64,000 nucleotides of DNA, from NCBI GenBank assembly GCA_947458235.1, contig CANGYP010000001.1:1248-65247 (forward strand), read 5' to 3'. A program made the position numbers and the translations under genes. Position 1 is the first letter of the stretch. Every line of letters begins with the position of its first letter. Positions 20,689-44,373 of the stretch are shown here, in pieces. The notes under the pieces are model-generated. The model was not told the origin of the DNA and made no database searches. It was given only the letters and a program-made list of their open reading frames with translations. Source of the stretch: Alphaproteobacteria bacterium. Its GTDB lineage: Bacteria; Pseudomonadota; Alphaproteobacteria; JAJTHO01; CANGYM01.

Positions 20689-22737
20689 CTACGCCACATC
20701 CCCCATAGTCCCATGAAATGCTTGTTCCTCGGCGCGGCGCATGTCCTCTTCGTATTCGGCTTTACGGGCCTCGATCATAAAGGGGGGCATGGACGGGGCA
20801 GGGGGGTAGTTTAGGCCCATACCATGATCTGGATTATGCACCAAGTGTTTCAATTCAGGATGTTTGAAATAGGCGGGGGTGCTTGCCATAATGGGCCGGT
20901 TCATATTGGCCTGCATCAGAACGATGTGTTGTTTCAGATTGGGTAGGGACATAAAATCCTCTGGCCGAATCAGGGGTTGGCCCTGCAAAGATTTCTGCAT
21001 GTTGCTGGCAAAGGGATTGGTTTGACGGGACAAACCCACGGTGCGGCTTTTGGATTTGGATTCCATGGTCCGCTGGCCCACCATTTCCGAAAACCGTTTG
21101 GCTGTGGTTTCGTTGTTCAGGGGCAAAATCACTTTAGCGGCAGTGGTGGAAATCACGGTTTCCATTTCGTTTTCCCCGTATTTGGCCTTGATCTGGCCCA
21201 AATCCTGACCGATCATCAGGAAACTGACCTTTTGTCCCCGACCCACGGCAGGACCATCAATCAGGGCCTGCAGCTTGGGCATTTGGGGGAACTCATCCAA
21301 AACAAACAACACAGGAAAGGGGCCCACATCCCTGCCATCACGGGTTTTCCCCTTGGGTTTATGGGCCACCAACCATGCGGACATGGCCTCAATCAGCAAT
21401 CCCGTAATCACCCCTAGGGCGCGGGCATCTTCTTGGTTCACACAAATATAAATGGTTACGGGTTTCATTTCCCCTGTTATGGGGTCACGCATACCGCGCA
21501 CATCCATAAAGGAAAAATCACTTTTGGATGTTCTGGCCCGCACGGCACTGTTTTTGAACACAATCAATCCTCCATCCATGGTGGACATGATGGACCCGCG
21601 CTCTTTATCGGGTGTGGCGGCTAAGCTGGTTAACTCCATAACCGCGCGAGGGGCAAACCCGCCAGCGTGGGCTTCGCTGGCGGCATCTTTTAAAAACTCT
21701 GTTACAGGATCATACTGCATGGCCTGCATGGGATTTTTTTTCATCAGCTCTTCTTTTTTCTTTTGCGCCCCCATGGTGGCTTCAGTCATCCAGTCAATAA
21801 TCATGGGGATGCATGCTTCTTGGCCTTGCCATTGCTTGGGGATGCCCTGATAATTGCCCGTTTCACATTTTTGAACGATATAATGGACAAATCCAGCCAA
21901 AGCGGCGCGGGCCTTGGTGGACCAGTGGGGCTCTTTTTCATTTTCCACAATCATAATATTAACAATACGATCCACATACAAATCGCGGTTGGGCCCGAAT
22001 TCGGGAATGCACATGGGGGATAAGGGATTCCAGCGGGGAAAGAAAATACCCTGCTCTGGCTTATCCTGCGCGGCCCATTCCAAACGAAAGCAAAGGCTGT
22101 GTTTGGAGCGATAACCAGATGTTAAATCAAACAATTCTGGCTTCACATCATTCACAATCATGGACACGTTGTCACAGGTCAGAATGGTGGGCACAACCAC
22201 ACTCACCGTTTTACCCGTCCCTGGGGGGGCCACACACAAAACGGAGAGGGTTTCTGGCAATTTCAACAAACGGCCTTTCCATTCCCCAATAACGATGATC
22301 CAGCCCTTATCCAGCAAGCCCATCTCTTTAATATCATCATCACGGGCATAACGGGATGATCCAAAGGTATCATCAATAAAGCTATAGGGGTTCCGCACCA
22401 ACATATAAAACAACAGCAAGCTGGCGGGCAGAAACGTGATGAACATTTCAACAGGCAGACCAAAAATACGCCAGTCGTTAGGAACACCCCCCACATTGCC
22501 AATCCAGTTTAAATGAAATTCATAAAACAGCATGGGGGATAGCATGGTTTCCCAATACGTTCCCAGCCCCATCAAGTTCGGCTTGCTGACCCCATTTTTC
22601 ATCAAATAAAAAAAACTGGCGGAAACGGCCGTTCCCACATACACAATAGAAACAAACCACACAAAGGACTTAAGGATCCACGCTCTGGCCTTTTGCGTTT
22701 CACCAGCATCTTTTTTACGTTGATAGGATAGGGACAT
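20689..22737 (-). CDS. virD4: Type IV secretion / conjugation coupling protein, VirD4/TraG family
   Basis: N-terminal TM helices, Walker A CVAPPGTGKTVSVVVPTIL and Walker B-like VLFVLDEF. 682 aa. Confidence 0.8.
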   Translation of the reverse strand: MSLSYQRKKDAGETQKARAWILKSFVWFVSIVYVGTAVSASFFYLMKNGVSKPNLMGLGTYWETMLSPMLFYEFHLNWIGNVGGVPNDWRIFGLPVEMFITFLPASLLLFYMLVRNPYSFIDDTFGSSRYARDDDIKEMGLLDKGWIIVIGEWKGRLLKLPETLSVLCVAPPGTGKTVSVVVPTILTCDNVSMIVNDVKPELFDLTSGYRSKHSLCFRLEWAAQDKPEQGIFFPRWNPLSPMCIPEFGPNRDLYVDRIVNIMIVENEKEPHWSTKARAALAGFVHYIVQKCETGNYQGIPKQWQGQEACIPMIIDWMTEATMGAQKKKEELMKKNPMQAMQYDPVTEFLKDAASEAHAGGFAPRAVMELTSLAATPDKERGSIMSTMDGGLIVFKNSAVRARTSKSDFSFMDVRGMRDPITGEMKPVTIYICVNQEDARALGVITGLLIEAMSAWLVAHKPKGKTRDGRDVGPFPVLFVLDEFPQMPKLQALIDGPAVGRGQKVSFLMIGQDLGQIKAKYGENEMETVISTTAAKVILPLNNETTAKRFSEMVGQRTMESKSKSRTVGLSRQTNPFASNMQKSLQGQPLIRPEDFMSLPNLKQHIVLMQANMNRPIMASTPAYFKHPELKHLVHNPDHGMGLNYPPAPSMPPFMIEARKAEYEEDMRRAEEQAFHGTMGDVA

Positions 22738-24243: not shown

Positions 24244-26556
24244 ATGATGACGCATCGATGGATTTTAGGGTTTGTTGTGTTGCTTTTCTCTGCCTTCTCA
24301 GCCGCGGAGGCCAAGACGTGCTTGGTGCTTTCTGGCGGAGGCGCCTTGGGGATTGCCCATGTGGGTGTTTTGAAAGTTTTAGAGGAACAGCGCGTTCCCA
24401 TCGATTGCATCGCTGGCACCAGCATGGGTGCCATTGTGGGGGGGTTGTATGCCTCGGGTTACTCCGCGCAGGAACTGGAAACCCTAGTAGAAACCTCTCA
24501 ATGGGCTACATTATTCAGCGAGCCTAGTGAGCGGCGTGATTTAACCTTTCAGCGCAAGCGGGATGATCTAAACTTTTTAATGGATTTTAAAATCGGCATC
24601 AACGACGAAGGCAAGGTTGCCCTGCCCAAAGGGGCCATTTTGGGCAATCAGATTGATCTGGCGTTTTTGGAATTCACCCTGCGCAGTCATGGGATTACTG
24701 ATTTTGATCGGTTGCCCATTCCCTTTCGCGCTGTGGCCTCGGATGTGGAAACGGGAAATCCTGTGATTTTGGGGCATGGGTCCTTGGTTCGGGCCATGCG
24801 GGCCAGCATGTCTGTGCCTGGGGTTTTTGCCCCTGTAGAGATTGATGGAAAATTTTTGGTGGATGGGGGCGCATCCAACAACCTGCCCATGGATGTAGCC
24901 AGAGCCATGGGGGCCAACCACCTGATTGTGGTTCATATTCCCACGCTTCTTAAGGAGTATTCCGAACTAACCTCTGCCCTAGACGTGGCTGGACAGATGA
25001 TTTCCATTTTGATCAAGCAAAACGAGGATCGGCAACTCACCACCCTGACCGTTCAGGATGTTTACATTCGTCCTGATATTGACGGGTTTAGCTCCAGCGA
25101 TTTTGCACAGGCTAAAGCGATCATCAAGCCCGGCATCAAGGCTGCGCAGGACCAACACAAGGCTTTGGCGCCTTTGTCAGTGTCCCCTGCAGACTACGCC
25201 GCCCTTCGCGCCCGTCAATACCGCCCCGTACCCCCAAACCCCCTTATTGAGTTTGTGGAACTAAAGAATGATTCAAAACTCAGTGATGAAATCCTGTGGC
25301 AAAACATGTCCATAAAATCTGGCGAACCCCTATCCATGCAAGTTTTGCAGCAGGATTTATCCCGTCTTTATGGGACAGGACATTTTGAAAGCGTCACTTT
25401 TGATATTGTGGATCGCTCTGGGCAAAAAGCGGGCGTTATTGTATCCGCCACAGACAAAGCCCAAAAAGACCATGGAAACGTTGGGGTAACGCCCAAGGCT
25501 CCATCTCCTACCACCGTATCCGAGGCGATACCCTTCTCTGAAAAAGGCCTTTCCATCGCCGCACAGCCCAAAGCATGGTCAATGGATAACCTGCGGTTTG
25601 GCCTGAATTTAGAGGATAATTTTGAAGGCAACACATCCTATAATCTCTCCACTCGTTATTCGCAAACCCTGTTGAATAATTTAGGCGGCGAGCTAAATCT
25701 AGACGGCCAAGTGGGGGAAAACAACAAAGCCAAAGCCGAATGGTACCAACCCTTAAGTGCTGAAAAAGGCCCCTTCGTGGCCGCCAGTGGGGGGTACGAG
25801 GGGCAAAATATCCCCATTTTGCAAAACAAACAGGAGATTGCCAAATACCGCCTAACCCGCTACACCGCCCAAGCGGCTGTGGGCACAACGCTGCTGGATA
25901 ACGACGGCGAGGCCCGTGTAGGCCTTGAGCGGGGCTATGGGTACGCGGACCTGAAAACAGGCGATCGCCCCTCGGGCATCGACAATGACTTTGATATTGG
26001 AGATGCCTTTGTGTCCATTGATTATGACACCTTAGATCAAATCAATTTTCCCAAAAAAGGGAAATTTGGCAACATAACCTTTCGCAAAGCCACGGAAACC
26101 CTAGGCTCCACAAGCCGTTATGAGCAGGGGCAAGGGCGCATGACATGGGTAGAAAGTTTAGATGACAAAAACACCTTTATTTTCACCAGCAGCTTGGATC
26201 TCTCGCTGGAAGATGACGCCCCCATCAATGGCCAATTTTTGGGGGGTGGATTCCTGAATTTTTCGGGTTACCAAAAAGACCAAATCCTAAGCCCTAACAT
26301 CAGCAGCAATCGCCTTCTGTACATCCACCAGCTGTATGGCAACAGCGAAGACCTCTTTCATCTGCCTGTTTATGTGGGGGGATCGTTTGAGGTCGGGGAT
26401 TATCAGGAACAGCACCAAGATTTGATGAGCGATCCCATCGCCTCTGGATCGGGATTTTTTGGCACGGACACTATCTTTGGCCCCGTATACTTGGGCTACG
26501 GCCAGTCCGAAGGGGGAATGCGGTCCGTCTATCTATTCTTGGGACGCTCTTTTTAA
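24244..26556 (+). CDS. Patatin-like phospholipase fused to a C-terminal Omp85/surface-antigen beta-barrel (PlpD-like type Vd autotransporter)
   Basis: Signal peptide, oxyanion CLVLSGGGALG, GTSMGA nucleophile and DGGASNN catalytic Asp. A long Gly/Tyr/Asn-rich beta-strand region ends in the C-terminal FLGRSF, typical of OM beta-barrels. Confidence 0.75.
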   Translation: MMTHRWILGFVVLLFSAFSAAEAKTCLVLSGGGALGIAHVGVLKVLEEQRVPIDCIAGTSMGAIVGGLYASGYSAQELETLVETSQWATLFSEPSERRDLTFQRKRDDLNFLMDFKIGINDEGKVALPKGAILGNQIDLAFLEFTLRSHGITDFDRLPIPFRAVASDVETGNPVILGHGSLVRAMRASMSVPGVFAPVEIDGKFLVDGGASNNLPMDVARAMGANHLIVVHIPTLLKEYSELTSALDVAGQMISILIKQNEDRQLTTLTVQDVYIRPDIDGFSSSDFAQAKAIIKPGIKAAQDQHKALAPLSVSPADYAALRARQYRPVPPNPLIEFVELKNDSKLSDEILWQNMSIKSGEPLSMQVLQQDLSRLYGTGHFESVTFDIVDRSGQKAGVIVSATDKAQKDHGNVGVTPKAPSPTTVSEAIPFSEKGLSIAAQPKAWSMDNLRFGLNLEDNFEGNTSYNLSTRYSQTLLNNLGGELNLDGQVGENNKAKAEWYQPLSAEKGPFVAASGGYEGQNIPILQNKQEIAKYRLTRYTAQAAVGTTLLDNDGEARVGLERGYGYADLKTGDRPSGIDNDFDIGDAFVSIDYDTLDQINFPKKGKFGNITFRKATETLGSTSRYEQGQGRMTWVESLDDKNTFIFTSSLDLSLEDDAPINGQFLGGGFLNFSGYQKDQILSPNISSNRLLYIHQLYGNSEDLFHLPVYVGGSFEVGDYQEQHQDLMSDPIASGSGFFGTDTIFGPVYLGYGQSEGGMRSVYLFLGRSF

Positions 26557-26582: not shown

Positions 26583-28034
26583 TTGGAAAACGGGTTAGAG
26601 TGCCTTATGCATTTTTCACAGTATCACACTGATGGGTTTTATGATGAGCTGTTCCTGAGCGATGGGCAGCCCAGACCCGAAGCCGCCCCTCTGATTGCCC
26701 AGATCAATGCCCTCTCCAGCAAGGATTTACGGCGTCGCCAACGGGCGGCCGAGCTGGCCATGTTCCAGCAGGGGATTACCTTTAGCGTTTACGGCGACCG
26801 TCAGGGACACGAAAAAATCATTCCCTTTGATATTTTGCCCCGCATCATTACGGGGCAAACGTGGGCGGTGTTAGAGCGGGGATTAAAACAGCGCATCTTG
26901 GCCTTGAACACTTTTATTCACGATATTTATCATGACCAGAACATTTTGCGCGATGGGGTCATTCCCCGTGAGTTGGTTCTGTCCAGTGCCTGTTACCTGC
27001 CTGCGTGTCAGGGATTAACACCCCCTAAAAACACATGGGCCCATATTGCGGGCATTGATTTGGTGCGGGATGAACAGGGGATGTTTTACGTTTTGGAGGA
27101 TAACGTGCGCTGCCCATCGGGCATTTCCTATGTTCTGGAAAACCGCACCATGCAAAAGCGCACCTTTCCGCGGGCATTTGAGGCTATGCGCGTGCGCCCC
27201 GTATCCAACTATCCCAACCAGCTTTACCAGATGCTGCGCCGCCTTTCCAGCGAAGCGGACCCCACCGTGGTGGTTCTAACCCCTGGTATGTACAATTCTG
27301 CCTATTTTGAACATGCCTTTTTGGCCCAACAAATGGGGGTCTTTTTGGCTGAAGGGGCAGATTTGACGGTATCGGGGGGCTACGTCTGGTTGAAAACCAC
27401 ACGGGGCCTGAAAAAGGTGGATGTGATTTACCGCCGCATAGATGATATCTTTCTGGATCCTGTGGCGTTTCGTCCAGACTCCTTGTTGGGGGTTGCGGGG
27501 CTGATGGACTGTTATCGGCGGGGCACGGTGGCCCTTGCCAATGCCCCTGGTACGGGGGTTGCGGATGATAAAGCGATTTATGCCTATGTCCCCGCCATGA
27601 TCCGCTATTATTTGGGGGAAGAGGCCATCATTCCCAACGTCCCTACCTATCTGTGTTCGGATGATGCCCAGCGGCAGTATGTTTTGGACAATCTGGAAAC
27701 TCTGGTGGTGAAGGCTGTGAATCTTTCTGGGGGTTATGGCATGTTGATTGGCCCCAAATCCACGGCAGAAGAGCGCAACACCTTTGCCGAGGCCATTCGT
27801 ACCAACCCACGGGATTACATTGCCCAGCCCACGCTGTCCCTGTCCCGCGCCCCCACCCTGACACCTGAGGGGATTGAGGGACGCCACGTAGATTTTCGGC
27901 CCTATGTGCTATCCAGCGACGAGGTTTTTGTTTTGCCTGGGGGCTTGACTCGTGTGGCGTTGGTGAAGGGGTCGCTGGTGGTCAATTCCTCCCAAGGGGG
28001 CGGCAGCAAAGATACATGGATTTTGGAGGACTAA
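26583..28034 (+). CDS. Circularly permuted type-2 ATP-grasp protein (COG2308, DUF404/DUF407)
   Basis: 483 aa. The HFSQYHTDGFYDEL start and conserved blocks YVLEDNVRCPSG and YVPAMIRYYLGEEAIIPNVPTY are characteristic of the family. Confidence 0.8.
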   Translation: MENGLECLMHFSQYHTDGFYDELFLSDGQPRPEAAPLIAQINALSSKDLRRRQRAAELAMFQQGITFSVYGDRQGHEKIIPFDILPRIITGQTWAVLERGLKQRILALNTFIHDIYHDQNILRDGVIPRELVLSSACYLPACQGLTPPKNTWAHIAGIDLVRDEQGMFYVLEDNVRCPSGISYVLENRTMQKRTFPRAFEAMRVRPVSNYPNQLYQMLRRLSSEADPTVVVLTPGMYNSAYFEHAFLAQQMGVFLAEGADLTVSGGYVWLKTTRGLKKVDVIYRRIDDIFLDPVAFRPDSLLGVAGLMDCYRRGTVALANAPGTGVADDKAIYAYVPAMIRYYLGEEAIIPNVPTYLCSDDAQRQYVLDNLETLVVKAVNLSGGYGMLIGPKSTAEERNTFAEAIRTNPRDYIAQPTLSLSRAPTLTPEGIEGRHVDFRPYVLSSDEVFVLPGGLTRVALVKGSLVVNSSQGGGSKDTWILED

Positions 28035-28038
28035 ACCA

Positions 28039-28971
28039 ATGCTCAGCCGTGTGGCCAACGCTGTTTACTGGATGAGTCGTTATTTGGAACGCGCCGATAA
28101 CGTGGCCCGTTTTATTCACGTCAACATTCACCTGATGCTGGATTTGGGATTAGAGCATGACAATGGACGCTGGGCCCCTTTGGTGGCAGCGTCGGGTGAT
28201 GATGAGGATTTTCGCCGTCGTTACGATGATCATAATGAAAAAAACGTCCTGCATTTTTTGACGTTTGACGAGGAAAATCCCAATTCCATTCTGTCTTGCA
28301 TTCACCGCGCTAGAGAAAATGCCCGAACCGTGAGAGAAATTTTGTCTTCGGATTTATGGATGGCCATCAATGATGTGCATCATCTAACCCAAAAACAGGC
28401 CAGACGTCGCAAAATTGGGGATTTGCAGGATTTTTATTTGTCCATCCGCCGCGCGGGCTATGTGTTTACGGGCCTGCTCGAAGATACCATGACCCACGGC
28501 GAGGCATGGCATTTTGCCGATTTAGGCCGCATGCTAGAGCGTGCCGATAAAACGGCGCGTATTTTGGATGTGAAGTACTTTCTGCTGTTGCCCAGTTTAG
28601 AGTATTTTGATTCCCCCTATGATGCGGTGGAATGGAGCGCGGTTTTAAAATCCGTCAGTGCCTTTGAAATGTACCTCAAGCAACACCACACCATCAATTA
28701 CAAAAATGTGGCAGATTTTTTGATTTTTCATCCCTCATTCCCTCGATCCATCCTACGCTGCACGCATCAGGCGGCGCGGTCTTTACACAGCATTGTGGCC
28801 GCCACCGCCAGCGATACCGATATTGAACAGTCCATGTCCACCCTGCGGTCTTTTCTGGCCGATGCCACCATCGAGAGCGTTTTAAACCACGGCATGCATG
28901 AATTTATCGATACCTTTCAAACCCATAGCAACACGTTGGATCGGGACATTAGCCAAACATTTTTTGCATGA
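28039..28971 (+). CDS. Alpha-E domain protein (COG2307, DUF403)
   Basis: Starts MLSRVANAVYWMSRYLERADN, the hallmark alpha-E N-terminus. Lies 5 nt downstream of the ATP-grasp gene. Confidence 0.8.
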   Translation: MLSRVANAVYWMSRYLERADNVARFIHVNIHLMLDLGLEHDNGRWAPLVAASGDDEDFRRRYDDHNEKNVLHFLTFDEENPNSILSCIHRARENARTVREILSSDLWMAINDVHHLTQKQARRRKIGDLQDFYLSIRRAGYVFTGLLEDTMTHGEAWHFADLGRMLERADKTARILDVKYFLLLPSLEYFDSPYDAVEWSAVLKSVSAFEMYLKQHHTINYKNVADFLIFHPSFPRSILRCTHQAARSLHSIVAATASDTDIEQSMSTLRSFLADATIESVLNHGMHEFIDTFQTHSNTLDRDISQTFFA

Positions 28972-29119: not shown

Positions 29120-30316
29120 CTAAAACATCTCCGCAGGATCTACCGCACGCAGTTTCTGCATGGCCAAAGCCCCTGACAGGGTACACATCACCAAAATCAT
29201 TGAAAAAATTGAAATCATTTTCAATACGGGCATAGGCATGGGCAAAAAAATGTTGGTTTCCACCACCTGATACAATACCCACGCCAGTAACGTCCCAGGC
29301 ACAAACCCCAGCACAGCCAAAATCAGAGACGATGCCAATACCACCATAAACAAATAACGAAACGTATATCCCATAGCCGTTAATGTCGCGTATTGATTTA
29401 AATGGGTAGCAATGTCCGTAAACAAGATTTGATACACAATGATCATCCCCACCACCAACCCCATCACCGTTCCAAAACCGAAAATAAACCCCACAGGAAC
29501 GTTTTTTTGCCAATAATCAAATTCGTGTTGTTTCATTTCAGGGAAGGTAAAAAGGTAAACATCGGGACTGACGCGCTGACGCAGGCTGGCTTGTACCGCC
29601 ACAGGGTCTGCGCCAGCCTTTAAGCGAATCACCCCCAGATCAATCTGCTCTGGTGCGCGGGCGGAAAAAATACGAAAAAAGTTATTATCACTGACAATCA
29701 CATTCCCATCCGAGGCAAAGGATCCCCCCAAAACAAATGTCCCGCGCAACGTGACGGCGCGATCATTGATTTCTGTTACAACAGGCCCTTTAGGCAACAG
29801 CCCTGCGATAGGTCCAAACTCGGGGCGCGAGGCCTTATCAAACAATCCTGTATCTGGATCAATCAGTTGCGCACTTTGGGCAATCACCTCTGGCATGGTC
29901 ATGAGATGGGTTAAGGGGTCATAGCCATAGATAGTCAACGTACGCTTGGTGTGATCCTGCGGATTTTTAAAAGGGGCTAAGCCCATATATAGAGGAATGA
30001 CTTCTTTGATATCGGGATGGGCCATGGTGCGGTACAATTCGGCCCGTGCGAAGGGAATGGTTCGCCAGAAAGCCTCAGTCTGGCGATGGATCAAAAACAA
30101 ATCTCCATCGATTTTTGATGGGGCCAAAATCACACTGGCATACAATGCATCCCGAAACCCCGTTTGAATATAGACCAAAACACAGGCAAACATAACACCC
30201 AACACCGCCGCCAACAGCTTGGCACGGCTAAAGACCATCTGACGCCACGCCAAGCGCCCCGCAAAATGAAACTGTTGCGCCAAAGATACGGACTTCATGG
30301 GCATCAACGCTGTCAC
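29120..30316 (-). CDS. ABC exporter permease, FtsX/MacB-like (DevC family)
   Basis: N-terminal TM, a large periplasmic domain and a C-terminal FtsX 3-TM bundle. 398 aa. Overlaps the upstream adaptor gene by 4 nt. Confidence 0.7.
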   Translation of the reverse strand: MTALMPMKSVSLAQQFHFAGRLAWRQMVFSRAKLLAAVLGVMFACVLVYIQTGFRDALYASVILAPSKIDGDLFLIHRQTEAFWRTIPFARAELYRTMAHPDIKEVIPLYMGLAPFKNPQDHTKRTLTIYGYDPLTHLMTMPEVIAQSAQLIDPDTGLFDKASRPEFGPIAGLLPKGPVVTEINDRAVTLRGTFVLGGSFASDGNVIVSDNNFFRIFSARAPEQIDLGVIRLKAGADPVAVQASLRQRVSPDVYLFTFPEMKQHEFDYWQKNVPVGFIFGFGTVMGLVVGMIIVYQILFTDIATHLNQYATLTAMGYTFRYLFMVVLASSLILAVLGFVPGTLLAWVLYQVVETNIFLPMPMPVLKMISIFSMILVMCTLSGALAMQKLRAVDPAEMF

Positions 30317-31215
30317 ATTTTGGGGACGAAGCGCACAGAAACACGGCGGTAAATCTGGTTTTTCAACTGCGGCGCTATCGCTGGATCCACCGCAATACGC
30401 ACAGAAACCACGCGATTATCCCGATCTGCTAAGGGGTCCGTATCATTCACATCATTCCCCCGCACCACAAAGCCCACATGATACACAACCCCCTGAACAG
30501 GCATGATCTGCTGGGGCAAAAAAATTTCTGCTTTTTGACCTGTTTTGATGCGGGCAATATCGCTTTCAAACACTTCAGCCCGCACATCCATGGCAGATAA
30601 GTTGGCAAAAGTCATAATCCCCTTGTCCGATGCACGCTCGCCCTGACGGGTCAAAATCTCCAAAATCGTCCCTGCAAATGGGGCGCGTATGGTGGTATCC
30701 TCCAGATTTTGCACCGCCACCGCCAAGCTGGCCTCAGCCTCTAGGATCTCGGCCCTCAGGGCCGCACCTTGAGCCGCAGCGGTTTTCCAGTTTTTTTCTG
30801 TTTCATCTTTTTCAGATACACTAATGGCCTGCTGGTGCTGTAAGACTTTGCGCCGTTCGTATTCTTTTCGGGTAAAGACCTCTGTAACATCATTTTGCTG
30901 TAGTTGGGCTTTCAGGCGGACCAGACGGGCCTTGGCTTCCTCTAATTCGGCTTTTCTGGTGGCGCGATTGCCTAGTTGCGCCAGCGGTTGGCCCTCCGCC
31001 ACAAATTCCCCCTCCTGCACAAACAGCATGGACACGGTTACAGGCTCCATGGTGCCTTTGTGGGTCAAGGTTAACACGCGGGATTTTGGCTCAATAATCC
31101 CCATAGCACCCACGGCGCCAGGGGAGAGTCCATCGGCATGCGCCAACGAAGAAACACACAACATGATCAAAAAAAGGCTACTCATAATAATAAAGTGTTT
31201 AAGCCTCTGAACCAT
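30313..31215 (-). CDS. HlyD/DevB-family membrane fusion (periplasmic adaptor) protein
   Basis: Signal/TM MVQRLKHFIIMSSLFLIMLCVSSLAHA, a coiled-coil and a beta-barrel hairpin domain. Start taken at an internal Met, though the ORF could start at 31272. Confidence 0.7.
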   Translation of the reverse strand: MVQRLKHFIIMSSLFLIMLCVSSLAHADGLSPGAVGAMGIIEPKSRVLTLTHKGTMEPVTVSMLFVQEGEFVAEGQPLAQLGNRATRKAELEEAKARLVRLKAQLQQNDVTEVFTRKEYERRKVLQHQQAISVSEKDETEKNWKTAAAQGAALRAEILEAEASLAVAVQNLEDTTIRAPFAGTILEILTRQGERASDKGIMTFANLSAMDVRAEVFESDIARIKTGQKAEIFLPQQIMPVQGVVYHVGFVVRGNDVNDTDPLADRDNRVVSVRIAVDPAIAPQLKNQIYRRVSVRFVPKM

Positions 31216-31399
31216 CTCACCCCTCAAAGTGTTCTCACGAGTATTTTTGACACATAACCACAGCATCCACATAACCTTCTAAGGGATGGTTAAAGGCCTC
31301 ACCAATACGTCCGATGAATGAACAGGTCATTCAGAAACCAAAAACGGAGCACTCATACCAATTCACATTCAAAAACATACAAATGCCCCCATGTTTTTG

Positions 31400-31550
31400 A
31401 AAAATTCCCTCTCCCGCTTGCGGGGGAGGGTTAGGGAGGCGGTCTTTTGCATTATTTTTCATAACATTATTCTTATTGCAACCCCCTCTACCCAACCCTC
31501 TCCCCGACGGGGAGAGGGGGGTCTTGATTGTGTCTTGGTATCACAAGACA
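31400..31550. repeat. Cluster of REP-like GC-rich palindromes between rplO and the DevB-like gene
   Basis: CCCTCTCCCGCttgCGGGGGAGGG lies at 31407-31430. A perfect palindrome CCCTCTCCCCGaCGGGGAGAGGG lies at 31496-31518. GTCTTGgtatcaCAAGAC lies at 31532-31549 with a GTCTTG direct repeat. The 71-aa ORF 31391-31606 (PSPRRGEGG) is just their translation. Confidence 0.7.
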
Positions 31551-31602
31551 ACAAGCGCTGTTTGCCCAAGAATTTTCTTAAAAACCCGCCCCGAACGTAT
31601 CC

Positions 31603-32073
31603 TTAACGTCCTGACAAAGCCTCAACAACCACAGACCCGCCCGCGGTCTGTATTTTCTTCAAGGCGGATTCGGAAACGCCCTGAACATTCAGGGAAATCT
31701 TGGTTGTGATCTCGCCTTGGCTGAGCACACGAAGACCATGTGTGGCTTTGGAGGCAATCCCTAAACGCACTAAATCTGCCGTAGTCACGATCTGGGATGC
31801 ATCCAAACGGCCTGAATTCACAGCAGCTTGCAGGGTTCCCACATTCACAACAGAGTATTGTTTTTTGAAAATATTGGTAAAGCCTTTTTTGGGCAAACGG
31901 CGGTGTAGAGGCATTTGGCCCCCTTCAAATCCGTTGATCGCCACACCCGTGCGGGCCGTCTGACCTTTCCCACCACGACCACAGGTTTTGCCTTTACCGC
32001 TTCCAATGCCACGACCCACGCGCATCAGACCGCGGCGAGCCCCTTTATTATCCCGAACAGCGTTTAGTTGCAT
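31603..32073 (-). CDS. rplO: 50S ribosomal protein L15
   Basis: [38 protein letters not shown]. Confidence 0.92.
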
Positions 32074-32264
32074 ACAGAACCATCCTCAACACGAATTAAA
32101 TGACGAACTTTGGTGATCATGCCGCGCACAGCCGGCGTATCCTGAACCACGGATGTGGAATGAATTTTTCGCAGACCCAAACCAATCAAACAAGCCTGTT
32201 GATTGGGCAAAATACCAAAAAAGCTCCGAACCTGCGTCAAGCGCAGGGTAGAGGAGGAAGACAC
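32064..32264 (-). CDS. rpmD: 50S ribosomal protein L30 (start uncertain, GTG at 32264 or ATG at 32357)
   Basis: Core [48 protein letters not shown] matches L30. The long ORF has a Lys/Ser-rich N-terminal extension that would overlap rpsE. Confidence 0.6.
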
Positions 32265-32331
32265 GACCTGTTTCTGAGAGGATGACGTCTTCACACCCCC
32301 AGCAGCATCCTTTTTTGCAGCCTGTGGGGCT

Positions 32332-32883
32332 TTACGCTTCGTGGCTGTCGTTTCCATAACTTTGCTCCTGATCTTGATCTTGATGATCTTTGGTATCTCC
32401 GCGGCGACGGACAAGGTCACCAATTTTCAAATCTCGCTTAGCTGCCACCAGCTTAGGGGCCGTGGTTGCCGTCAGTCCAGCCAAAGTGGCCCGAATCATG
32501 TTATAGGGGTTAGAGGATCCCAAGGATTTCGCCACCACATCGTGAACACCCAAGGCCTCGAACACTGCACGGGAAGGCCCCCCCGCAATGATTCCCGTAC
32601 CCGCAGGGGCACTACGCAGGGTAATGCGCCCCGAACCGAAACGGCCAACGACATCATGATGCAGGGTACGACCCTCACGCAGATTGATACGAACCATATT
32701 TTTTTTTGCACTTTCAATGGCTTTCTTCATGGCCTCTGGAACCTCTTTGGCCTTTCCAGACCCATATCCCACGCGGCCCTGACCATCGCCAACAACAACC
32801 AAAGCAGCGAAGGCAAATTTACGGCCCCCTTTAACAACTTTGGCCACACGGTTAATAGCAACCAGCTTTTCAATGTAATCCAT
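32332..32883 (-). CDS. rpsE: 30S ribosomal protein S5 (with unusual acidic C-terminal tail)
   Basis: [30 protein letters not shown]. Confidence 0.9.
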
Positions 32884-32900
32884 ATGGCTTTCCGTTTTTC

Positions 32901-33275
32901 CTAAAATAATAAACCGCCTTCACGGGCACCCTCAGCCAAGGATTTGACGCGCCCGTGGTACTGATAACCACTGCGATCAAAATACACTTTGCTAACATTG
33001 TTTTCCAGAGCCCGCTTAGCCAAAAGAACACCTACCTCCTTGCAAGAGCCCAGATTCACAGAACGCTTGGGGAGGGCACTTTCCATCTTTTTCAAAGCCT
33101 CATCCCGAGAACATGCCGAAGCCACCACATGACCCGATGTCATATCAATCACTTGGGCATACAGGGACGTGTTAGAGCGGTAAACACTCAAACGATGGGA
33201 CACCGTAGCAGAGGCCTTCAACTGCGTCCGAACGCGGGCACGACGCTTTTCAAAAGAGGATATTTTCTTAGCCAT
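32901..33275 (-). CDS. rplR: 50S ribosomal protein L18
   Basis: [10 protein letters not shown]...[17 protein letters not shown]. Confidence 0.9.
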
Positions 33276-33284
33276 GATGGAAAC

Positions 33285-33818
33285 CTATTTCTTTTTGCCT
33301 TCTTTACGCAGAACGATCTCACCTTCATAGCGCACGCCTTTGCCTTTATAGGGCTCTGGGGCACGAATAGAACGAATTTTCGCTGCGACCTGACCCACAA
33401 CTTGTTTGTCATAACTGTGCAACTGAATGGTGGTGGGCTTTTCACATTTGGCTGTCACACCCGCAGGCAGATCAAACACTATCGGGTGACTAAAACCCAA
33501 CTGAAGATCAATAGCATTGCCCTTCAAGGCAGCACGATACCCAACGCCCACCAACTCTAGAGTCTTTGTAAAGCCAACGGTCGTGCCCACAACCATGCCC
33601 TGAATGCGGGCACGAATGGTGCCCCACAGGGCGCGACTCTGCTTACTGGCCGAGGCTGGCTTTACGGTAATCTGATGATCCTCAACGGATACATCCACAC
33701 CTTGGGGGAGGGATAAGGAGAGGGCACCAAGCTTACCTTGCACGGACAAAATCCCCTGATTCAAAGAAACAGAGCAATCTTTAGGAACAATAACAGGATG
33801 CTTTCCGACGCGGGACAT
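33285..33818 (-). CDS. rplF: 50S ribosomal protein L6
   Basis: MSRVGKHPVIVPKDCSVS... The listed ORF extends upstream to 33980, and the start was set at the L6-type Met. Confidence 0.9.
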   Translation of the reverse strand: MSRVGKHPVIVPKDCSVSLNQGILSVQGKLGALSLSLPQGVDVSVEDHQITVKPASASKQSRALWGTIRARIQGMVVGTTVGFTKTLELVGVGYRAALKGNAIDLQLGFSHPIVFDLPAGVTAKCEKPTTIQLHSYDKQVVGQVAAKIRSIRAPEPYKGKGVRYEGEIVLRKEGKKK

Positions 33819-33837
33819 GGCACAAAACTCCAAAACT

Positions 33838-34236
33838 TTAAAACACAGTACAAATCCATTCACCGCCCAAGCCTGCTTTCCTCGCCTCAGCGTCAGAAAA
33901 AATACCCAAAGAGGTGGACACAATCCCAATACCCAAACCATTATGAACCTTTGGCATACCCGAGGCACCACAGTACACACGACGACTGGGCTTTGATTCG
34001 CGGGAGATTTCCTTAATCACAGGCTGGCCTTGATAGTACTTCAGCTCTATGACGATTTCTTGAACACGAGGACGAACATCCCGCACTTCGTAGCCGCGAA
34101 TGTAACCTTCGCGCTTTAAAACATCCAAAATCGACTGTTTTAAACGAGACGCCGGCACAGCCACCTGCGTTTTACGCGCCGCAGCACCATTGCGAAGCGA
34201 GGTTAACATAGCCCCAATAGGATCGGTCATGGTCAT
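33838..34236 (-). CDS. rpsH: 30S ribosomal protein S8
   Basis: MTDPIGAMLTSLRNG. Confidence 0.9.
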   Translation of the reverse strand: MTMTDPIGAMLTSLRNGAAARKTQVAVPASRLKQSILDVLKREGYIRGYEVRDVRPRVQEIVIELKYYQGQPVIKEISRESKPSRRVYCGASGMPKVHNGLGIGIVSTSLGIFSDAEARKAGLGGEWICTVF

Positions 34237-34242
34237 AATGGC

Positions 34243-34548
34243 TTACCAACTTGATTTTACAACACCAGGAAGCTGGCCAGCAGAAGCCAACTCCCGCAAT
34301 TTAATACGAGACAAACCAAACTTACGATATACGCCCCGAGAGCGACCTGTCAAAGCGCAGCGGTTACGAATACGAACTTTCGCGGAATTTCGGGGCATTT
34401 CGGATAATTTACGAACAGCCATCAGACGGTCTTCCATAGGCAAAGAGCGGTCTTTGACTTTTGCCACAAGGGCTGTACGACGGGCCAAAGCATTTTCAGC
34501 CTTGCGACGACGACTCTTGTCACGTTCTTTCATGCACAGTTTAGCCAT
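34243..34548 (-). CDS. rpsN: 30S ribosomal protein S14
   Basis: [15 protein letters not shown]...[28 protein letters not shown]. Confidence 0.9.
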
Positions 34549-34562
34549 GAACAGGTCTCACT

Positions 34563-35114
34563 TTAATTATAAAACGGAAAACCAAATGCCTTTAGCAAGG
34601 CCTTGGTGTGATCCGCGCGGTTACTGCTAGAAACGAGGACTATATCCATTCCGAAAACTTTGTCAATCTTATCGTAATCAATTTCGGGAAAGATAATGTG
34701 CTCTTTAATCCCCATAGCATAGTTACCTTGGGCATCAAAGGATTTTACAGAAATCCCTCGGAAATCTCGGATGCGGGGCATAGCGATAGTCACCAGACGA
34801 TCCAGAAATTCATACATGCGCTCGCGGCGCAGAGTGACTTTGCATCCCATCACCATACCTTGACGTACTTTGAAGGTGGCAATGGATTTTTTAGCGCGTG
34901 TAACCATGGGCTTTTGACCAGCCAAAAGCGCTATGTCGGCCACAACTTTATCCAATTTTTTGCTGTCCTGAACCGCGTCACCAAAACCAACATTGATAAC
35001 GATTTTTTCCAAACGGGGAGCTTGCATCACATTCGATAAGCCAAGCTCTTGCATCAGCGCAGGGCGAATGTCTTTAAGATACTGCTGTTTTAAACGGGGC
35101 TGCGTTTCAACCAT
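34563..35114 (-). CDS. rplE: 50S ribosomal protein L5
   Basis: [19 protein letters not shown]...RDFRG. Confidence 0.9.
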
Positions 35115-35427
35115 CGATCACTTCTCCTGACTTTTTCGCATAACGGACCTTTTTTCCATCAATGATCTTATACCCCACGCGGGTGGGCACATCCAACTTA
35201 GGGTCCAAGAGGGCCACATTGGAAACATCAATGGCCTTTTCAAAACGACGAATACCACCAGCATCCAGCTGGGTAGGCTTCTGGTGCTTGGTGACCACAT
35301 TGACACCATCCACAATCAGCTTATTTTCAGACGGCAGGACTTTTAACACCTTGCCACGCTTGCCCTTATCCTTGCCAGACAGCACAACCACCCTGTCTTC
35401 GCGCTTAATTTTGACTTTTTGTTTCAT
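35107..35427 (-). CDS. rplX: 50S ribosomal protein L24
   Basis: [22 protein letters not shown]. Confidence 0.9.
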
Positions 35428-35795
35428 TATAGGACCTCCGGGGCCAAAGATATAATTTTCATGTAATTTTTCGAACGCAGCTCACGAGTCACAGGGCCAA
35501 AAATACGGGTTCCCACAGGCTCGCCCTGCTTGTTGATGATAACAACAGCATTGTTATCAAAACGAATCAGAGAATCATCGGGGCGACGCACACCAAAACG
35601 GGTCCGCACAACCAAAGCGCGATGCACATCCCCCTTTTTCACTTTCCCCCGAGGAATGGCGTCCTTAACCGACACCACAATCACATCCCCGATCTCAGCG
35701 GTTCTTTTTTTTGATCCGCCCAAAACCTTAACACACATAACAGTTTTGGCACCAGAGTTATCCGCAACGTCTAAACGTGTTTGCATCTGAATCAT
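35427..35795 (-). CDS. rplN: 50S ribosomal protein L14
   Basis: [17 protein letters not shown]. Confidence 0.92.
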
Positions 35796-36052
35796 ACAGA
35801 AACTCCTTGTACAGAGGCACCTGTATCATCTAACAGGACCCATGTTTTTCTCTTAGAAAAGGGACGGGACTCCACGATGGATACAACGTCGCCCTGACGG
35901 GAGCGGTTGGCTTCATCATGAGCCAAGAATTTTTTGGAACGCTTAATGTACTTTTTATACACAGGGTGCTTTACGGAACGCTCAACCAAAACACTGATGG
36001 TTTTGTCTTTAGCATCCTTCACAACAACACCTTGCATCACACGACGGGGCAT
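35792..36052 (-). CDS. rpsQ: 30S ribosomal protein S17
   Basis: [40 protein letters not shown]. Confidence 0.9.
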
Positions 36053-36064
36053 AACAATGATCCT

Positions 36065-36265
36065 TTAGGCAGGGTTATTCAACAGGGTCTTAATTTGGGC
36101 AATGCGACGACGCACAAAACGAAAACGGGTTGTGTTTTCCACGCCCCCGCTTTTCTTTTTAAAGCGCATACCCATCAAATCACGCTGACAATGATGCAGC
36201 ATATCGGTGAGTTCATCTTTGGTTTTGCCCCGCAACAAAGCGGCCTTTCGTTCCGACAATTTCAT
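36065..36265 (-). CDS. rpmC: 50S ribosomal protein L29
   Basis: LRGKTKDELTDMLHHCQRDLMGMRFKK. Confidence 0.85.
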   Translation of the reverse strand: MKLSERKAALLRGKTKDELTDMLHHCQRDLMGMRFKKKSGGVENTTRFRFVRRRIAQIKTLLNNPA

Positions 36266-36270
36266 AATGT

Positions 36271-36687
36271 TTACTCACATGGCAGACGTTTAACAAATTT
36301 TGACTGAATCGGCAACTTGGCATGAGCCAAAGCAAAAGCCTCACGGGCTTGCTCTTCCGATACACCCTCAATTTCAAAAAGAATGCGCCCCGGAGCTACA
36401 CGACAAGCCCAGAATTCTGGTGTTCCTTTTCCACTTCCCATACGCACTTCCGCAGGTTTGCGGGATACAGGCAAATCTGGGAACACACGAATCCAGAGCT
36501 TACCTGCACGACGCAGGTGACGGGTGATGGCACGACGGGCCGCCTCGATTTGGCGAGCCGTAATGCGATCAGCAGCTAAGGCTTTTAAACCAAACTGACC
36601 AAAATTCAAACGATCTCCAGCTTTGGTCTCGCCTTTGATGCGCCCTTTATGCGCTTTACGGTATTTTGTTTTCTTGGGGCTAAACAT
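36271..36687 (-). CDS. rplP: 50S ribosomal protein L16
   Basis: [19 protein letters not shown]. Confidence 0.92.
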
Positions 36688-36708
36688 GCCTAACTCCGTT
36701 GTGGTTAT

Positions 36709-37368
36709 CTATGCTGCGGTGCGCAGATCTTCGCGCTCGCCATCTTTGAGAATTTCACCTTTGTAAATCCAGACCTTAATACCAATAACGCCGTAGGTTG
36801 TCAAAGCCTCTGCTTCTCCATAGTCGATATCGGCACGCAGGGTGTGAAGGGGAACCCGACCTTCACGATACCATTCCATGCGAGCGATTTCCGCGCCCCC
36901 CAAACGGCCACTGCAGTTAATCCGAATGCCCTCAGCACCGAAACGCAGTGCCGACTGAACCACACGGCGCATAGCCCGACGAAAGGCCACTCGCTTTTCC
37001 AACTGAGAGGCCACGTTTTGAGCCACCAACTTGGCTTCGATTTCGGGCTTGCGAATTTCAACGATGTTGATCTGAACATCCCGCCCCAAAAACTTGGCTA
37101 AATCCTTGCGCAATAATTCAATGTCTGTCCCTTTTTTACCAATAATCAATCCAGGACGACCCGAATACAAGTTCACGATGGGCTTGTTGGCTGGACGCTC
37201 GATGACAATTTTACTGATATAAGCCGCTTTCAGGCGCTTCTCCAAATACTTCCGGATTTCAAGATCCTGCAACAGAGTTTCCTGATAAGACTTACCCGCA
37301 AACCAACGGGAATCCCAGTCCTTGTTGACCTTCAAACGGAACCCAATGGGGTTGACTTTCTGACCCAT
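36709..37368 (-). CDS. rpsC: 30S ribosomal protein S3
   Basis: [12 protein letters not shown]...KH domain. Confidence 0.92.
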
Positions 37369-37371
37369 AAC

Positions 37372-37716
37372 CTAAATCTCCTCTTCTGCCAAAATAACAG
37401 TAATACGACTGACAGGCTTTTCAATACGTGCGCCGCGACCACGAGCCCGCGCCCGAAAACGTTTCATGACCAAGCTTTTCCCCACAAACGCTTCTTTGAC
37501 ATACAAACGATCCACGTCCAGACCGTGATTGTTTTCGGCGTTGGCAATGGCAGAGTTCAAGGTTTTCAACACCACATCTGCCACGCGCTTTTGAGAAAAC
37601 GTCAGGATGTGAATGGCATCCTGAACATGCTTACGGCGAATGCTGCCCGCAACCACATTAAGTTTTTGGGGGCTGCTGCGCACAACAGTATTCATGGCTT
37701 GGGCAAAACGGGTCAT
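37372..37716 (-). CDS. rplV: 50S ribosomal protein L22
   Basis: Position in the S10 operon, L22-like sequence and 114-aa length. Confidence 0.88.
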
Positions 37717-37725
37717 ACAAACACC

Positions 37726-38004
37726 TTACTTCTTTTTCGCTTTTTTATCAGCACCGTGACCCAAAAAGGTCCGTGTAGGGGCAAATTCACCCAGCTTGTG
37801 GCCAATCATGTCTTCGTTCACCGTCACAGGCACAAATTTTTTGCCGTTATACACACCAAAAGTTAACCCCACAAAGTTAGGGAGAATGGTGGAGCGGCGT
37901 GACCAAGTTTTAATGATATCGCGGCGACCAGAAGAGGCCACTTTAGCTGCTTTATCAATTAAATAACCGTCAACAAACGGACCTTTCCAGATAGAACGGG
38001 GCAT
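37726..38004 (-). CDS. rpsS: 30S ribosomal protein S19
   Basis: [15 protein letters not shown]...[17 protein letters not shown]. Confidence 0.92.
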
Positions 38005-38016
38005 ATACAGTGTCCT

Positions 38017-38844
38017 TTATTTCTGATAGCGTCGTTTAACAATATATTTGGACGTGGCCTTGTTCCGGCGCGTCCTTTTGCCTTTGGTGGATTTTCCCCA
38101 TGGCGTCACGGGGTGACGACCACCAGATGTTTTCCCTTCACCACCACCGTGCGGGTGATCCACAGGGTTCATGGCCACCCCACGAACATGGGGGCGGCGT
38201 CCTTTCCAGCGATTCCGTCCCGCTTTACCCAAAACTTCGTTCTGGTGATCAGGGTTGGAGACCATCCCAATGGTCGCATAGCAACTGGCGGGGACAAGGC
38301 GCACCTCACCAGAGGCAAGACGCAGCTGGGCATATCCCTGATCCCGCGCGACCAATTGAACAGAGGCTCCTGCACTACGCGCCATCTGGCCGCCTTTGCC
38401 GGGCTTCATTTCCACATTGTGAACCACTGTCCCCAAGGGAATGTTGGCTAAAGGCAGAGCGTTCCCCACACGAATGTCAGCTTTTTCACCTGAAAGAACT
38501 TTATCACCAGCTTTTAATTTCTGGGGGGCCAAGATGTAGGCTTTCTCACCGTCCTCATAAACGATCAAGGCAATATAAGCTGTGCGGTTGGGGTCATACT
38601 CCAGACGCTCCACCGTTGCGACGACATCGTGCTTAGCGCGCTTGAAATCAACCTGACGATACAAACGCTTGTGACGGGGACCGATGTTGCGATTTGTGGC
38701 ACGCCCCAAATTATTACGGCCCCCTGTGGAGTGAAGACCAGACACCAAGCTTTTTTCAGGACGACCCTTCCACAAATCCGAAGATGTGGACAGAATCAAG
38801 CCACGCGTTCCTGGGGTAACGGGTTTATAGGCTTTTAAGGCCAT
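38017..38844 (-). CDS. rplB: 50S ribosomal protein L2
   Basis: [15 protein letters not shown]...GGGEGK. Confidence 0.92.
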
Positions 38845-38847
38845 GAT

Positions 38848-39171
38848 CTAGACTCCATCAAAAAAATTAAGGGTTTCACCGTCTTTCAGGGTGATAATGG
38901 CCTTTTTTGTAGCATTGCGGTGCCCAACCACGCCCTTGAACCGCTTTGTTTTGGCGGGCAGGCGAATGATGTTCACCTTTTCAACGGTCACGGAAAAGAC
39001 CTCTTTCATGGCTAACTTCACATCGTTTTTGGTGGCGGCGGGCAAAACCTCAAACACCACTTTGTTGCCGATTTCACCTTGCATCGTGGACTTTTCCGTC
39101 ACAATGGGGCGACGCAGGATGTCAAAAGAGCTGATTTTTCTTTTTTTCGTGGATAATAAACCTTGTTTCAT
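38848..39171 (-). CDS. rplW: 50S ribosomal protein L23
   Basis: Position between rplD and rplB, and sequence ILRRPIVTEKST. Confidence 0.88.
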   Translation of the reverse strand: MKQGLLSTKKRKISSFDILRRPIVTEKSTMQGEIGNKVVFEVLPAATKNDVKLAMKEVFSVTVEKVNIIRLPAKTKRFKGVVGHRNATKKAIITLKDGETLNFFDGV

Positions 39172-39794
39172 AACGCAAACCTCTGCTCGATAGCCTCTTT
39201 GGCGGCGGCCGTGATCACAACATGACGGGACTGAAGCAGACTGTAAACGTTCAGTCCCTCCAGCGCCAACAAACGAACATCTTTAAGGTTGCGCAAAGCC
39301 CTGACAAATGGAGCATCCATATCTGCCTGATTGACAATAAAAAGGGGCTTAACCAACCCAAGTTTTTTGGCCCAAGCGGCGGCATCCTTGGCTTTTTCAA
39401 ACGCCGGATACGCATCCACAATCACTAAGGATTGATCTATGCACTTTGATGACAGAGCATGTTTTAATCCCAAAACCCGAATTTTTTTGTTCAACGCATA
39501 CCCATGATCCCGAACTACAGGCCCGAAAATTGTGGCCCCACCGCGATACTGTGGGGAACGCAAAGAACCCTGACGGGCATTTCCTGTTCCCTTTTGTTTA
39601 TAGGGTTTTTTTGTGGTTCCCTGAATGTCGGAGATGCCTTTGGTTTTGTGACATCCTGAGCGGCGTTTATCTAACTGCCATTGCACCACCCGCGCCATAA
39701 TATCGGGGCGCAAAGGGGACAGAGCAAAAACATCATCCCGCAAAGCCACATCCGTGGCTTTTAAATCGGGTCCTGTAAGCAAGGCGTACTGCAT
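39168..39794 (-). CDS. rplD: 50S ribosomal protein L4
   Basis: Position between rplC and rplW, L4-like sequence and 208 aa. Confidence 0.88.
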   Translation of the reverse strand: MQYALLTGPDLKATDVALRDDVFALSPLRPDIMARVVQWQLDKRRSGCHKTKGISDIQGTTKKPYKQKGTGNARQGSLRSPQYRGGATIFGPVVRDHGYALNKKIRVLGLKHALSSKCIDQSLVIVDAYPAFEKAKDAAAWAKKLGLVKPLFIVNQADMDAPFVRALRNLKDVRLLALEGLNVYSLLQSRHVVITAAAKEAIEQRFAL

Positions 39795-39804
39795 AAAACG
39801 ACTC

Positions 39805-40581
39805 TTAACTTTCTAACGTATCACCAGATGTGTCACTCGGGGCGGCCTCAGGGGCAGCAGCGTTGGACTCAGACGAAGGGGCCTGAACATCCAAAGCGGG
39901 GGCAGGAGACGCCACAGAGCCAGGGAAAGGAAGATCCCGAAAGGGAGACTTCACCGCGTCCTGAATCAAAACAAAACTGTTTGTGGCCCCAGGAATGCTG
40001 CCTTTAACAAAGACCAAGCCGCGAGCGACATCGGTTTCTAAAATCTCTAAATTCTGTTGGGTGACGCGCACATCCCCCATATGACCAGCCATTTTTTTGC
40101 CCTTAAAGACCTTACCTGGGTCCTGACGTTGCCCTGTGGACCCGTGGGAACGGTGACTAATAGAAACCCCGTGGGACGCCCGCAAACCACCAAAATTGTG
40201 ACGCTTCATGGCACCAGCAAACCCTTTACCCACAGAGGTTCCGACAACATCAACCTTTTGACCCACAACGAAATGATCGGCTTGCAGGAGAGACCCCACA
40301 TCAAGGAAGGCCCCTGCCTCAACACGAAATTCGCGCACGATAGCCTTGGGGGAAAGATTGGCGTTGGCATACTGAACGCGCTGGGCTTTGTTGACACGGG
40401 AAGGGCGACGGCCCCCCGCGCCCAAAACAACCGCCGTATAACCATCACGGTCTTGGGTGCGCTGGCCAATAACCTGACACCCTTCTAAACTTAACACCGT
40501 CACTGCCGAAGACACACCGTCAACAGAAAAGCGACGCGTCATTCCCAGTTTTTTGGCGATTAAACCTGTACGCTTTGTCAT
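39805..40581 (-). CDS. rplC: 50S ribosomal protein L3 (with Ala/Pro/Ser-rich C-terminal extension)
   Basis: [18 protein letters not shown]... Confidence 0.9.
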
Positions 40582-40592
40582 AAAACCTCCCC

Positions 40593-40922
40593 TTAAGCCA
40601 CCGCGCCCATGGGCGTCAGCTTAATTTGCACATCAACACCAGAAGGCAGCTCCAACTTCATCAAAGCATCTACAGTCTGGGGAGTCGGACTTAGGATATC
40701 AATCAAACGCTTGTGGGTACGCATTTCGAACTGTTCCCGTGATTTTTTATTCACGTGGGGGGAGCGCAGCACCGTAAAGCGCTCAATACGGGTCGGCAAG
40801 GGAACAGGGCCGTGAAGCTTTGATCCCGTGCGCTTCACCGTATCGACAATTTGCTCTGCGGATTTATCCAAAATCCGGTGATCAAAGGCCCGAAGGTGCA
40901 CTCGAATGGTTTGTGCGTCCAT
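40593..40922 (-). CDS. rpsJ: 30S ribosomal protein S10
   Basis: [39 protein letters not shown]. Confidence 0.92.
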
Positions 40923-40951
40923 AGTTGATTCTCGTATCCACAGCGTTCACA

Positions 40952-40982
40952 GAAAAAAAGAGGCCGCATTATGCAGCCTCTT
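40952..40982 (-). terminator. Rho-independent terminator between tuf and rpsJ
   Basis: 7-bp GC-rich stem (AAGAGGC / GCCTCTT) with an 11-nt loop, followed on the minus strand by a T7 run. Read directly from the sequence. Confidence 0.6.
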
Positions 40983-41001
40983 TCGGGGTATGTAAAGACC
41001 T

Positions 41002-42177: not shown

Positions 42178-42202
42178 GGTTTTTCCTACCTTTAGTTAGT
42201 CA

Positions 42203-44278: not shown

Positions 44279-44373
44279 ACCAGAACACTAAAATCCATAA
44301 ACGATAAAGTCGTTCCTATGTAACGCTTATACTGGCGATTGCAAGTCTTTTTTTGTCTTTGTTATTGCCAGCA

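Follow-up and report, generated by a model that had tools for sequence, protein, structure and literature searches.

The S10-spc-alpha cluster is the textbook case of a gene order that has survived billions of years. In a survey of 204 genomes, secY was found outside the spc operon in one species (Brandis 2021, PMC8046335). A second described system that bears on the locus reported here is the very widespread BoxC/PIT/TM family of intrastrand-triplex motifs; copies in E. coli have the sequence CCCTCTCCC..GGGAGAGGGTTAGGGTGAGGG and frequently form inverted pairs. When E. coli strains are compared, TM loci prove more variable than control intergenic regions, and degeneration of the motifs, including loss of the third block, has been reported (Holder et al. 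2015, PMC4666352).

Here, a 64-kb stretch of DNA (hereafter the window) from an uncultured freshwater alphaproteobacterium was analyzed, together with the corresponding loci of its relatives, which are cited by locus number. The minus strand of the window carries 23 genes running from fusA to rplO (44278 to 31603), all full-length and in canonical order, as established with Pfam, the table of open reading frames and the gene calls on an identical ENA contig (L001). The block and its 3' side comprise the following features:

31603-44278, minus strand: the block, in the order fusA-tuf-rpsJ-rplC-rplD-rplW-rplB-rpsS-rplV-rpsC-rplP-rpmC-rpsQ-rplN-rplX-rplE-rpsN-rpsH-rplF-rplR-rpsE-rpmD-rplO
42203-44278, minus strand: fusA (Pfam, table of open reading frames)
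41002-42177, minus strand: tuf (same sources)
40593-40922, minus strand: rpsJ, first of the 21 S10/spc genes (same sources)
31603-32073, minus strand: rplO (L15), 156 aa, last gene of the truncated S10-spc unit, with its stop codon at 31603-31605
31216-31602, no strand: non-coding spacer of 387 nt from the rplO stop to the probable devB start (gene calls on two other assemblies)
30313-31215, minus strand: devB-family membrane-fusion (HlyD-type) adaptor gene, the first unrelated downstream gene (PF13437 HlyD_3; TIGR02971 heterocyst_DevB, 156.4 bits against a cut-off of 129)
29120-30316, minus strand: devC, ABC-exporter permease gene of the FtsX/MacB type (PF02687 FtsX; TIGR01185, 389.3 bits against 290.35)

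An earlier note on this DNA had claimed unbroken synteny from rpsJ to rplO, and indeed all 21 S10/spc genes were found on the minus strand in canonical order; for the spc part, Pfam and gene calls gave rplN-rplX-rplE-rpsN-rpsH-rplF-rplR-rpsE-rpmD-rplO. The last gene was identified by matches to PF00828 Ribosomal_L27A and TIGR01071 rplO_bact (148.9 bits, cut-off 78). Within the block, rpmD (L30, 32064-32357) was called at 97 aa, with a Lys/Ser-rich N-terminal extension of ~38 aa preceding the L30 domain and an overlap of 26 nt with the end of rpsE; its length in relatives ranges from 83 to 101 aa, owing to this variable extension.

Downstream of rplO, secY and the genes that follow it were said to be missing, and this was borne out by tblastn searches with SecY and Adk of Azospirillum soli and with SecY, Adk, S13, S11, RpoA and L17 of Thalassospira. 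None of the six proteins gave a match in the 64-kb window (E<=1e-3), while control loci were matched by these queries at 50-86% identity. Nor was secY, adk, rpsM, rpsK, rpoA or rplQ detected by tblastn in 333 kb of clade loci, and none of the six proteins was encoded within +/-10 kb of any relative's block or in 80 repeat-bearing metagenome loci. The intergenic space had been described as a repeat-filled spacer of 330 bp. The longest devB reading frame starts at 31272, the coordinate taken in that description; gene calls on two other assemblies place the devB start at 31215, behind the ribosome-binding site GAGGGGTGAG. As this is the probable start, the spacer extends over 387 nt, so that the description stands as regards the repeats and needs correction as regards the length.

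The DevB/DevC-like nature of the exporter encoded after the spacer was corroborated by scores above the cut-offs of both TIGR02971 and TIGR01185. No devA ATPase gene was found beside devBC, an arrangement shared by L001 and L002, and devC is followed by a convergent pair encoding Alpha-E and circularly-permuted ATP-grasp proteins (26583-28971). The exporter genes have no functional link to the ribosomal genes and are simply a new neighbour. A horizontal gain of devBC, judged by composition, was considered and rejected, GC being unshifted. Further along, the window encodes a 770-aa patatin-like phospholipase fused to POTRA and Omp85 domains (24244-26556), an architecture like that of PlpD and type Vd secretion, and a lone VirD4/TraG-type coupling protein of type IV secretion (20689-22737) with no other genes of such a system nearby, which is kept in L001 and L002.

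Gene order was then compared with that of other Alphaproteobacteria. A scan for L15, taking one genome per species, yielded 80 loci, of which 78 were outside the clade and one of those had no room downstream. In all 77 remaining species secY follows rplO, at a distance of 36-427 nt (median 236). By contrast, all known relatives within the clade (L15 66-95% identical, GC 41-52%) lack secY after rplO, so that the comparison recommended in the earlier note separates the clade cleanly from the species outside it. The only close species representatives, L011 (L15 95% identical) and L012 (79%), are Lake Mendota MAGs, and in both secY is not after rplO. A search of 5.8 billion proteins added four further L15 clusters of the clade (99, 93, 92 and 68%), besides the cluster of L012 (79%). 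Since every known lineage of the clade lacks secY after rplO, the loss of this adjacency is old: gene order points to a separation of rplO and secY that is clade-wide and older than the divergence of the known members, not an event of this genome's own. A 257-aa 'L15' (P0005) was examined as an intermediate relative and discarded, being an unrelated L15 that carries an internal duplication.

What follows rplO differs from one lineage to another. Apart from devB in the window species, the neighbours on the 3' side were:

L094 (L15 93% identical): genes for an M48 peptidase, PBP1A and an amidase, on the opposite strand; the same in L011
L012 (79%): a 261-aa ORF, on the opposite strand
L091 (66-68%; GC 41% against 50-52%; 359-kb contig): RNase J gene, a LeuA-like gene and glyS, on the same strand
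L220 (92%): gene for an SBF-family transporter, 114 nt after rplO

Five lineages thus have five different genes after rplO (devB, M48 peptidase, 261-aa ORF, RNase J and SBF transporter), and the neighbours of the relatives are all absent from the 64-kb window. Alignment of the window species with its sisters breaks off within ~13 nt of the rplO stop. As the five lineages have five different neighbours, the present rplO/devB junction is a later, secondary replacement. In L220 (20127-21176) and L094 (660-2910) the L15 proteins are 98% identical, yet one is followed by the SBF transporter gene and the other by the M48 peptidase gene, implying very fast turnover at the junction. EF-Tu of the window (41002-42177) is 100% identical to that of L220 (10001-11176), with only 87.6% nucleotide identity between the ribosomal blocks; across the clade, block nucleotide identity is 74-99%. 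An inversion was also considered, as a leuA gene lies after rplO in L091 and upstream of fusA in the window. It was rejected, since an identity of only 30% marks the two LeuA-like proteins as paralogues.

The 5' end of the block is likewise cut:

44279-46263, minus strand: 5' boundary of the block, with a hybrid histidine kinase gene (44374-46263) that ends 95 nt before fusA (Pfam, NCBIfam)

The rpsL-rpsG pair was absent upstream of fusA in the window and throughout the clade (L095, L097-L099, L220). Its place is taken by an aminotransferase gene and two small ORFs in L095, and by recR and an FAD oxidoreductase gene in L097-L099 and L220. In all clade members the gap before fusA measures 6-95 nt, so that transcription of fusA must start inside the unrelated genes upstream or pass through them. 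Farther out, a block encoding YjgF-FabF-ACP-HemD-x-HemY-HAD is kept between the window and the L097 type, whereas the seven genes between this outer block and fusA differ. Because the flanks vary while the outer block from YjgF to HAD is conserved, the fusA-rplO block is an island with variable flanks. Two ORFs of this region had no Pfam match: one of 362 aa (55907-56995) between the hemD-like and hemY-like genes, with a 338-aa counterpart at the same position in L097-L099 and L220, and one of 680 aa (50879-52921).

The repeats of the spacer had been called REP-like palindromes. Their structure was compared with the ITxF criteria (PMC4666352), which define a TM as a pyrimidine block, a complementary purine block and a G-rich mirror block of 6-15 nt, separated by loops of 1-6 nt, with at most one mismatch. 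The elements recognized in the spacer were (loops of the two units in brackets):

31483-31518, minus strand: unit B, 36 nt, CCCTCTCCCC(GTC)GGGGAGAGGG(TTG)GGTAGAGGGG
31407-31442, plus strand: unit A, 36 nt, CCCTCTCCC(GCTTGC)GGGGGAGGG(TTA)GGGAGGCGG, inverted relative to unit B
31368-31401, no strand: perfect 11-nt AT-rich inverted repeat, TTCAAAAACAT / ATGTTTTTGAA, with a 12-nt loop, ~150 nt upstream of devB
31314-31332, no strand: palindrome TGAATGAACAGGTCATTCA (strain alignment)

Unit A consists of 9-nt blocks with loops of 6 and 3 nt and 1+1 mismatches, and unit B of 10-nt blocks with loops of 3 and 3 nt, no Watson-Crick mismatch and one third-strand mismatch, so that both have the three-block structure with at most one mismatch per stem. 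Both also match the conserved G/C-rich TM sequence CCCTCTCCC...GGGAGAGGGTTAGGG (Table 1 of PMC4666352). Judged by structure and sequence, the repeats are an inverted pair of motifs of the described BoxC/PIT/TM family, in place of the REP-like palindromes first supposed. The two units are the only TM copies in the 64-kb window, and both are at the junction. In L002, L004, L006, L007 and L009, a 12-nt indel deletes exactly the linker and the third block of unit B, so that a simple hairpin remains. An exact 27-mer of unit A (TAACCCTCCCCCGCAAGCGGGAGAGGG) was found in at least 120 metagenome stretches. Flanks were unrelated among the 80 loci examined, which had GC contents of 37-71% and came from soil, rhizosphere and water. 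The exact conservation of the 27-mer across hosts is striking, and on several ERZ1066118/ERZ1066120 contigs it occurs as inverted doublets ~79 nt apart.

The spacer may also mark the end of the ribosomal transcript. Its minus-strand RNA is predicted to fold at -149.5 kcal/mol (z = -5.2), with -29.1 kcal/mol (z = -3.0) for the hairpin of unit B, and on the minus strand the hairpin of unit A, whose stem has a mismatch, is followed by AAUUUUUC. A consensus terminator scan called no minus-strand terminator in the spacer. Textbook intrinsic terminators, with a 12-bp GC stem and then a U-run, stand directly after the rplO stop in L011 and L094, and a weaker one follows rplO in L091. Work cited in PMC4666352, as that article summarizes it, found neither terminator nor promoter activity for PIT elements in E. 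coli. The S10-spc unit of the clade most likely ends functionally at rplO, and in the window species termination of the transcript at the TM hairpins is plausible from their predicted folds. The 11-nt AT-rich inverted repeat (fold z = -3.4), which is kept in L002 and L006, is possibly an operator or a hairpin. The palindrome TGAATGAACAGGTCATTCA is interrupted in the same two loci by a 109-nt insertion between 31324 and 31325, at its exact centre.

The unusual length of the spacer is the sole point in favour of a secY gene that was overlooked there or has decayed into a pseudogene. However, 387 nt fall short of the ~1.3 kb needed for secY, no tblastn match to SecY and no SecY remnant were found near the spacer even at E<=10, the small spacer ORFs of 27-77 aa are translation artefacts of the repeats, and scans of the spacer for tRNA, tmRNA and Rfam families (gathering and E-value thresholds) gave nothing meaningful, so that this reading is left with practically no probability. 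A chimeric contig join at the repeats, with secY really next to rplO, might be suspected from the frequency of the repeat 27-mer in metagenomes and from seven shorter contigs with the same L15 that end 48-215 nt past rplO, inside or near the repeats. Yet the exact L15 protein is present on 16 public metagenome contigs, four of which, from separate assemblies, span the junction. The order rplO-spacer-devB recurs in the window, L001, L002, L006 (GCA_947456375.1) and L221, five independent assemblies whose junctions differ by no more than the 12-nt indel, the 109-nt indel and a handful of substitutions; as far as they reach, the spacers of the seven short contigs match the long ones; and secY is likewise missing after rplO in four lineages free of the repeats, including one represented by a 359-kb contig. 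Assemblers break at the repeats but do not mis-join, and an assembly artefact is extremely improbable. With the flanking genes intact, no GC shift across the rplO/devB junction, no remnant of SecY and the same junction in five assemblies, the earlier note was right to see a genuine rearrangement breakpoint rather than degraded sequence. It could also be supposed that the fusA-rplO block is a second copy, duplicated or transferred, and that an intact supercluster with secY lies elsewhere in the genome; Psychromonas ingrahamii does carry duplicate copies of spc-alpha (PMC8046335), and of the present genome the analysis covers the window. Against this, all 23 genes are full-length with a GC content matching that of the flanks, and the divergence of the block follows that of the lineages, as its range of nucleotide identity across the clade (74-99%) attests. 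Moreover, the search of 5.8 billion proteins gave no close L15 or EF-G clusters beyond those of the fusA-rplO block, the two sets run parallel, lineage by lineage, and an exact EF-Tu look-up returned fusA-tuf-rpsJ contexts only, with no second tuf near secE-nusG-rpoBC. A second copy is accordingly judged very improbable.

A different question is whether the TM pair itself caused the latest replacement downstream of rplO, by replication stalling or recombination at non-B DNA. The position of the only two TMs in 64 kb exactly at the junction would fit such a role, as would the strain-level indels in and beside them, the greater rearrangement of TM loci than of controls among E. coli strains (PMC4666352) and the absence of TMs from sister lineages with other neighbours. 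Nonetheless, the association is correlative and concerns one locus judged post hoc, no TM was involved in the origin of the other four junction variants, no mechanism is established even in E. coli, and the TMs could have inserted into a spacer that was already permissive. Causation by the TMs is thus possible though somewhat unlikely, and since no TM was found at the relatives' junctions, these motifs cannot explain the old rplO/secY break. A wider proposal, in which fusA-rplO would be a fixed island with recurrent rearrangement hot spots at both ends and its newest junction marked, and possibly made, by the TM pair, is considered unlikely.

The explanation that we hold to be very probable as a whole combines a cut supercluster, an old rplO/secY break, repeated replacement of the neighbour, a TM-bearing junction and a secY tail placed elsewhere. 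In an uncultured freshwater clade of Alphaproteobacteria, the str-S10-spc-alpha supercluster would have been cut into pieces, of which the window holds one, a 12.7-kb unit complete in itself from fusA to rplO. The separation of rplO from secY would have preceded the divergence of the known clade members, and the DNA just past the rplO stop would since have been replaced repeatedly, with the devBC exporter pair arriving in the window species. At the present junction, the inverted TM pair would form strong hairpins, one of them followed by a U-run, which probably end the ribosomal transcript; the pair may also favour local rearrangement. The genes secY, adk, rpsM, rpsK, rpoA and rplQ are essential, and for this reason they are presumed to lie elsewhere in the genome. 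Three elements of this scheme are inferred: that the transcript terminates at the TM hairpins, that the TMs had a causal part and that secY was relocated.

A break in a conserved ribosomal supercluster is a known and ordinary kind of rearrangement and does not reveal a new molecular system; the observations are chiefly of interest for the evolution of genome order. Clean clade-wide exceptions are rare, with none among the 77 sampled Alphaproteobacteria and, for secY, one in 204 genomes (Brandis 2021, PMC8046335). The clade illustrates that secY, rpoA and the late ribosomal-protein genes need not lie together with the S10/spc genes, and the rplO/secY break offers a simple synapomorphy, a marker by which this uncultured freshwater lineage can be recognized. 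The turnover of neighbours constitutes a small natural data set on the rearrangements tolerated beside an essential operon, and may bear on whether triplex motifs promote rearrangements. If the junction was made by the TMs, TM/BoxC elements would be tied to a change of gene order on the scale of an operon in the most conserved gene cluster known; if, in addition, the block is an island with hot-spot ends, it would provide a natural case outside Enterobacteria.

Compared with the canonical str-S10-spc-alpha supercluster, the window shares gene content and order in fusA/tuf and from rpsJ through rplO, and differs in being cut after rplO, without secY-adk-rpsM-rpsK-rpoA-rplQ, and before fusA, without rpsL-rpsG. 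It resembles the exception of Brandis 2021 (PMC8046335) in that secY does not adjoin rplO while the rest of spc is intact. In that case, however, secY alone had left, whereas here the entire secY-to-rplQ tail is gone, the cluster is cut at its str end as well, and a whole clade shares this condition. With the DevBCA exporter of heterocyst-glycolipid type, the window has in common a DevB adaptor and a DevC permease that score above curated cut-offs, though the pair has no adjacent DevA ATPase gene.

REP/REPIN elements are mobilized by RAYT transposases. The units of the window are like them as short GC-rich extragenic palindromes in inverted doublets but carry the third G-rich block typical of TMs, number two copies in the 64-kb window, and have no RAYT/Y1-transposase gene among its ~66 Pfam-scanned ORFs. 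REP/REPIN elements are, moreover, species-specific, whereas the 27-mer of unit A is identical across metagenomes of 37-71% GC. The nearest match is BoxC/PIT/TM (TMECO; PMC4666352). Here the host is an uncultured alphaproteobacterium with two copies in 64 kb, and the triplex is predicted from sequence; the units have the same three blocks, CCCTCTCCC-loop-GGGAGAGGG-TTA/TTG-GGGxGAGGG, and show the inverted pairing found in E. coli and local variability among strains.
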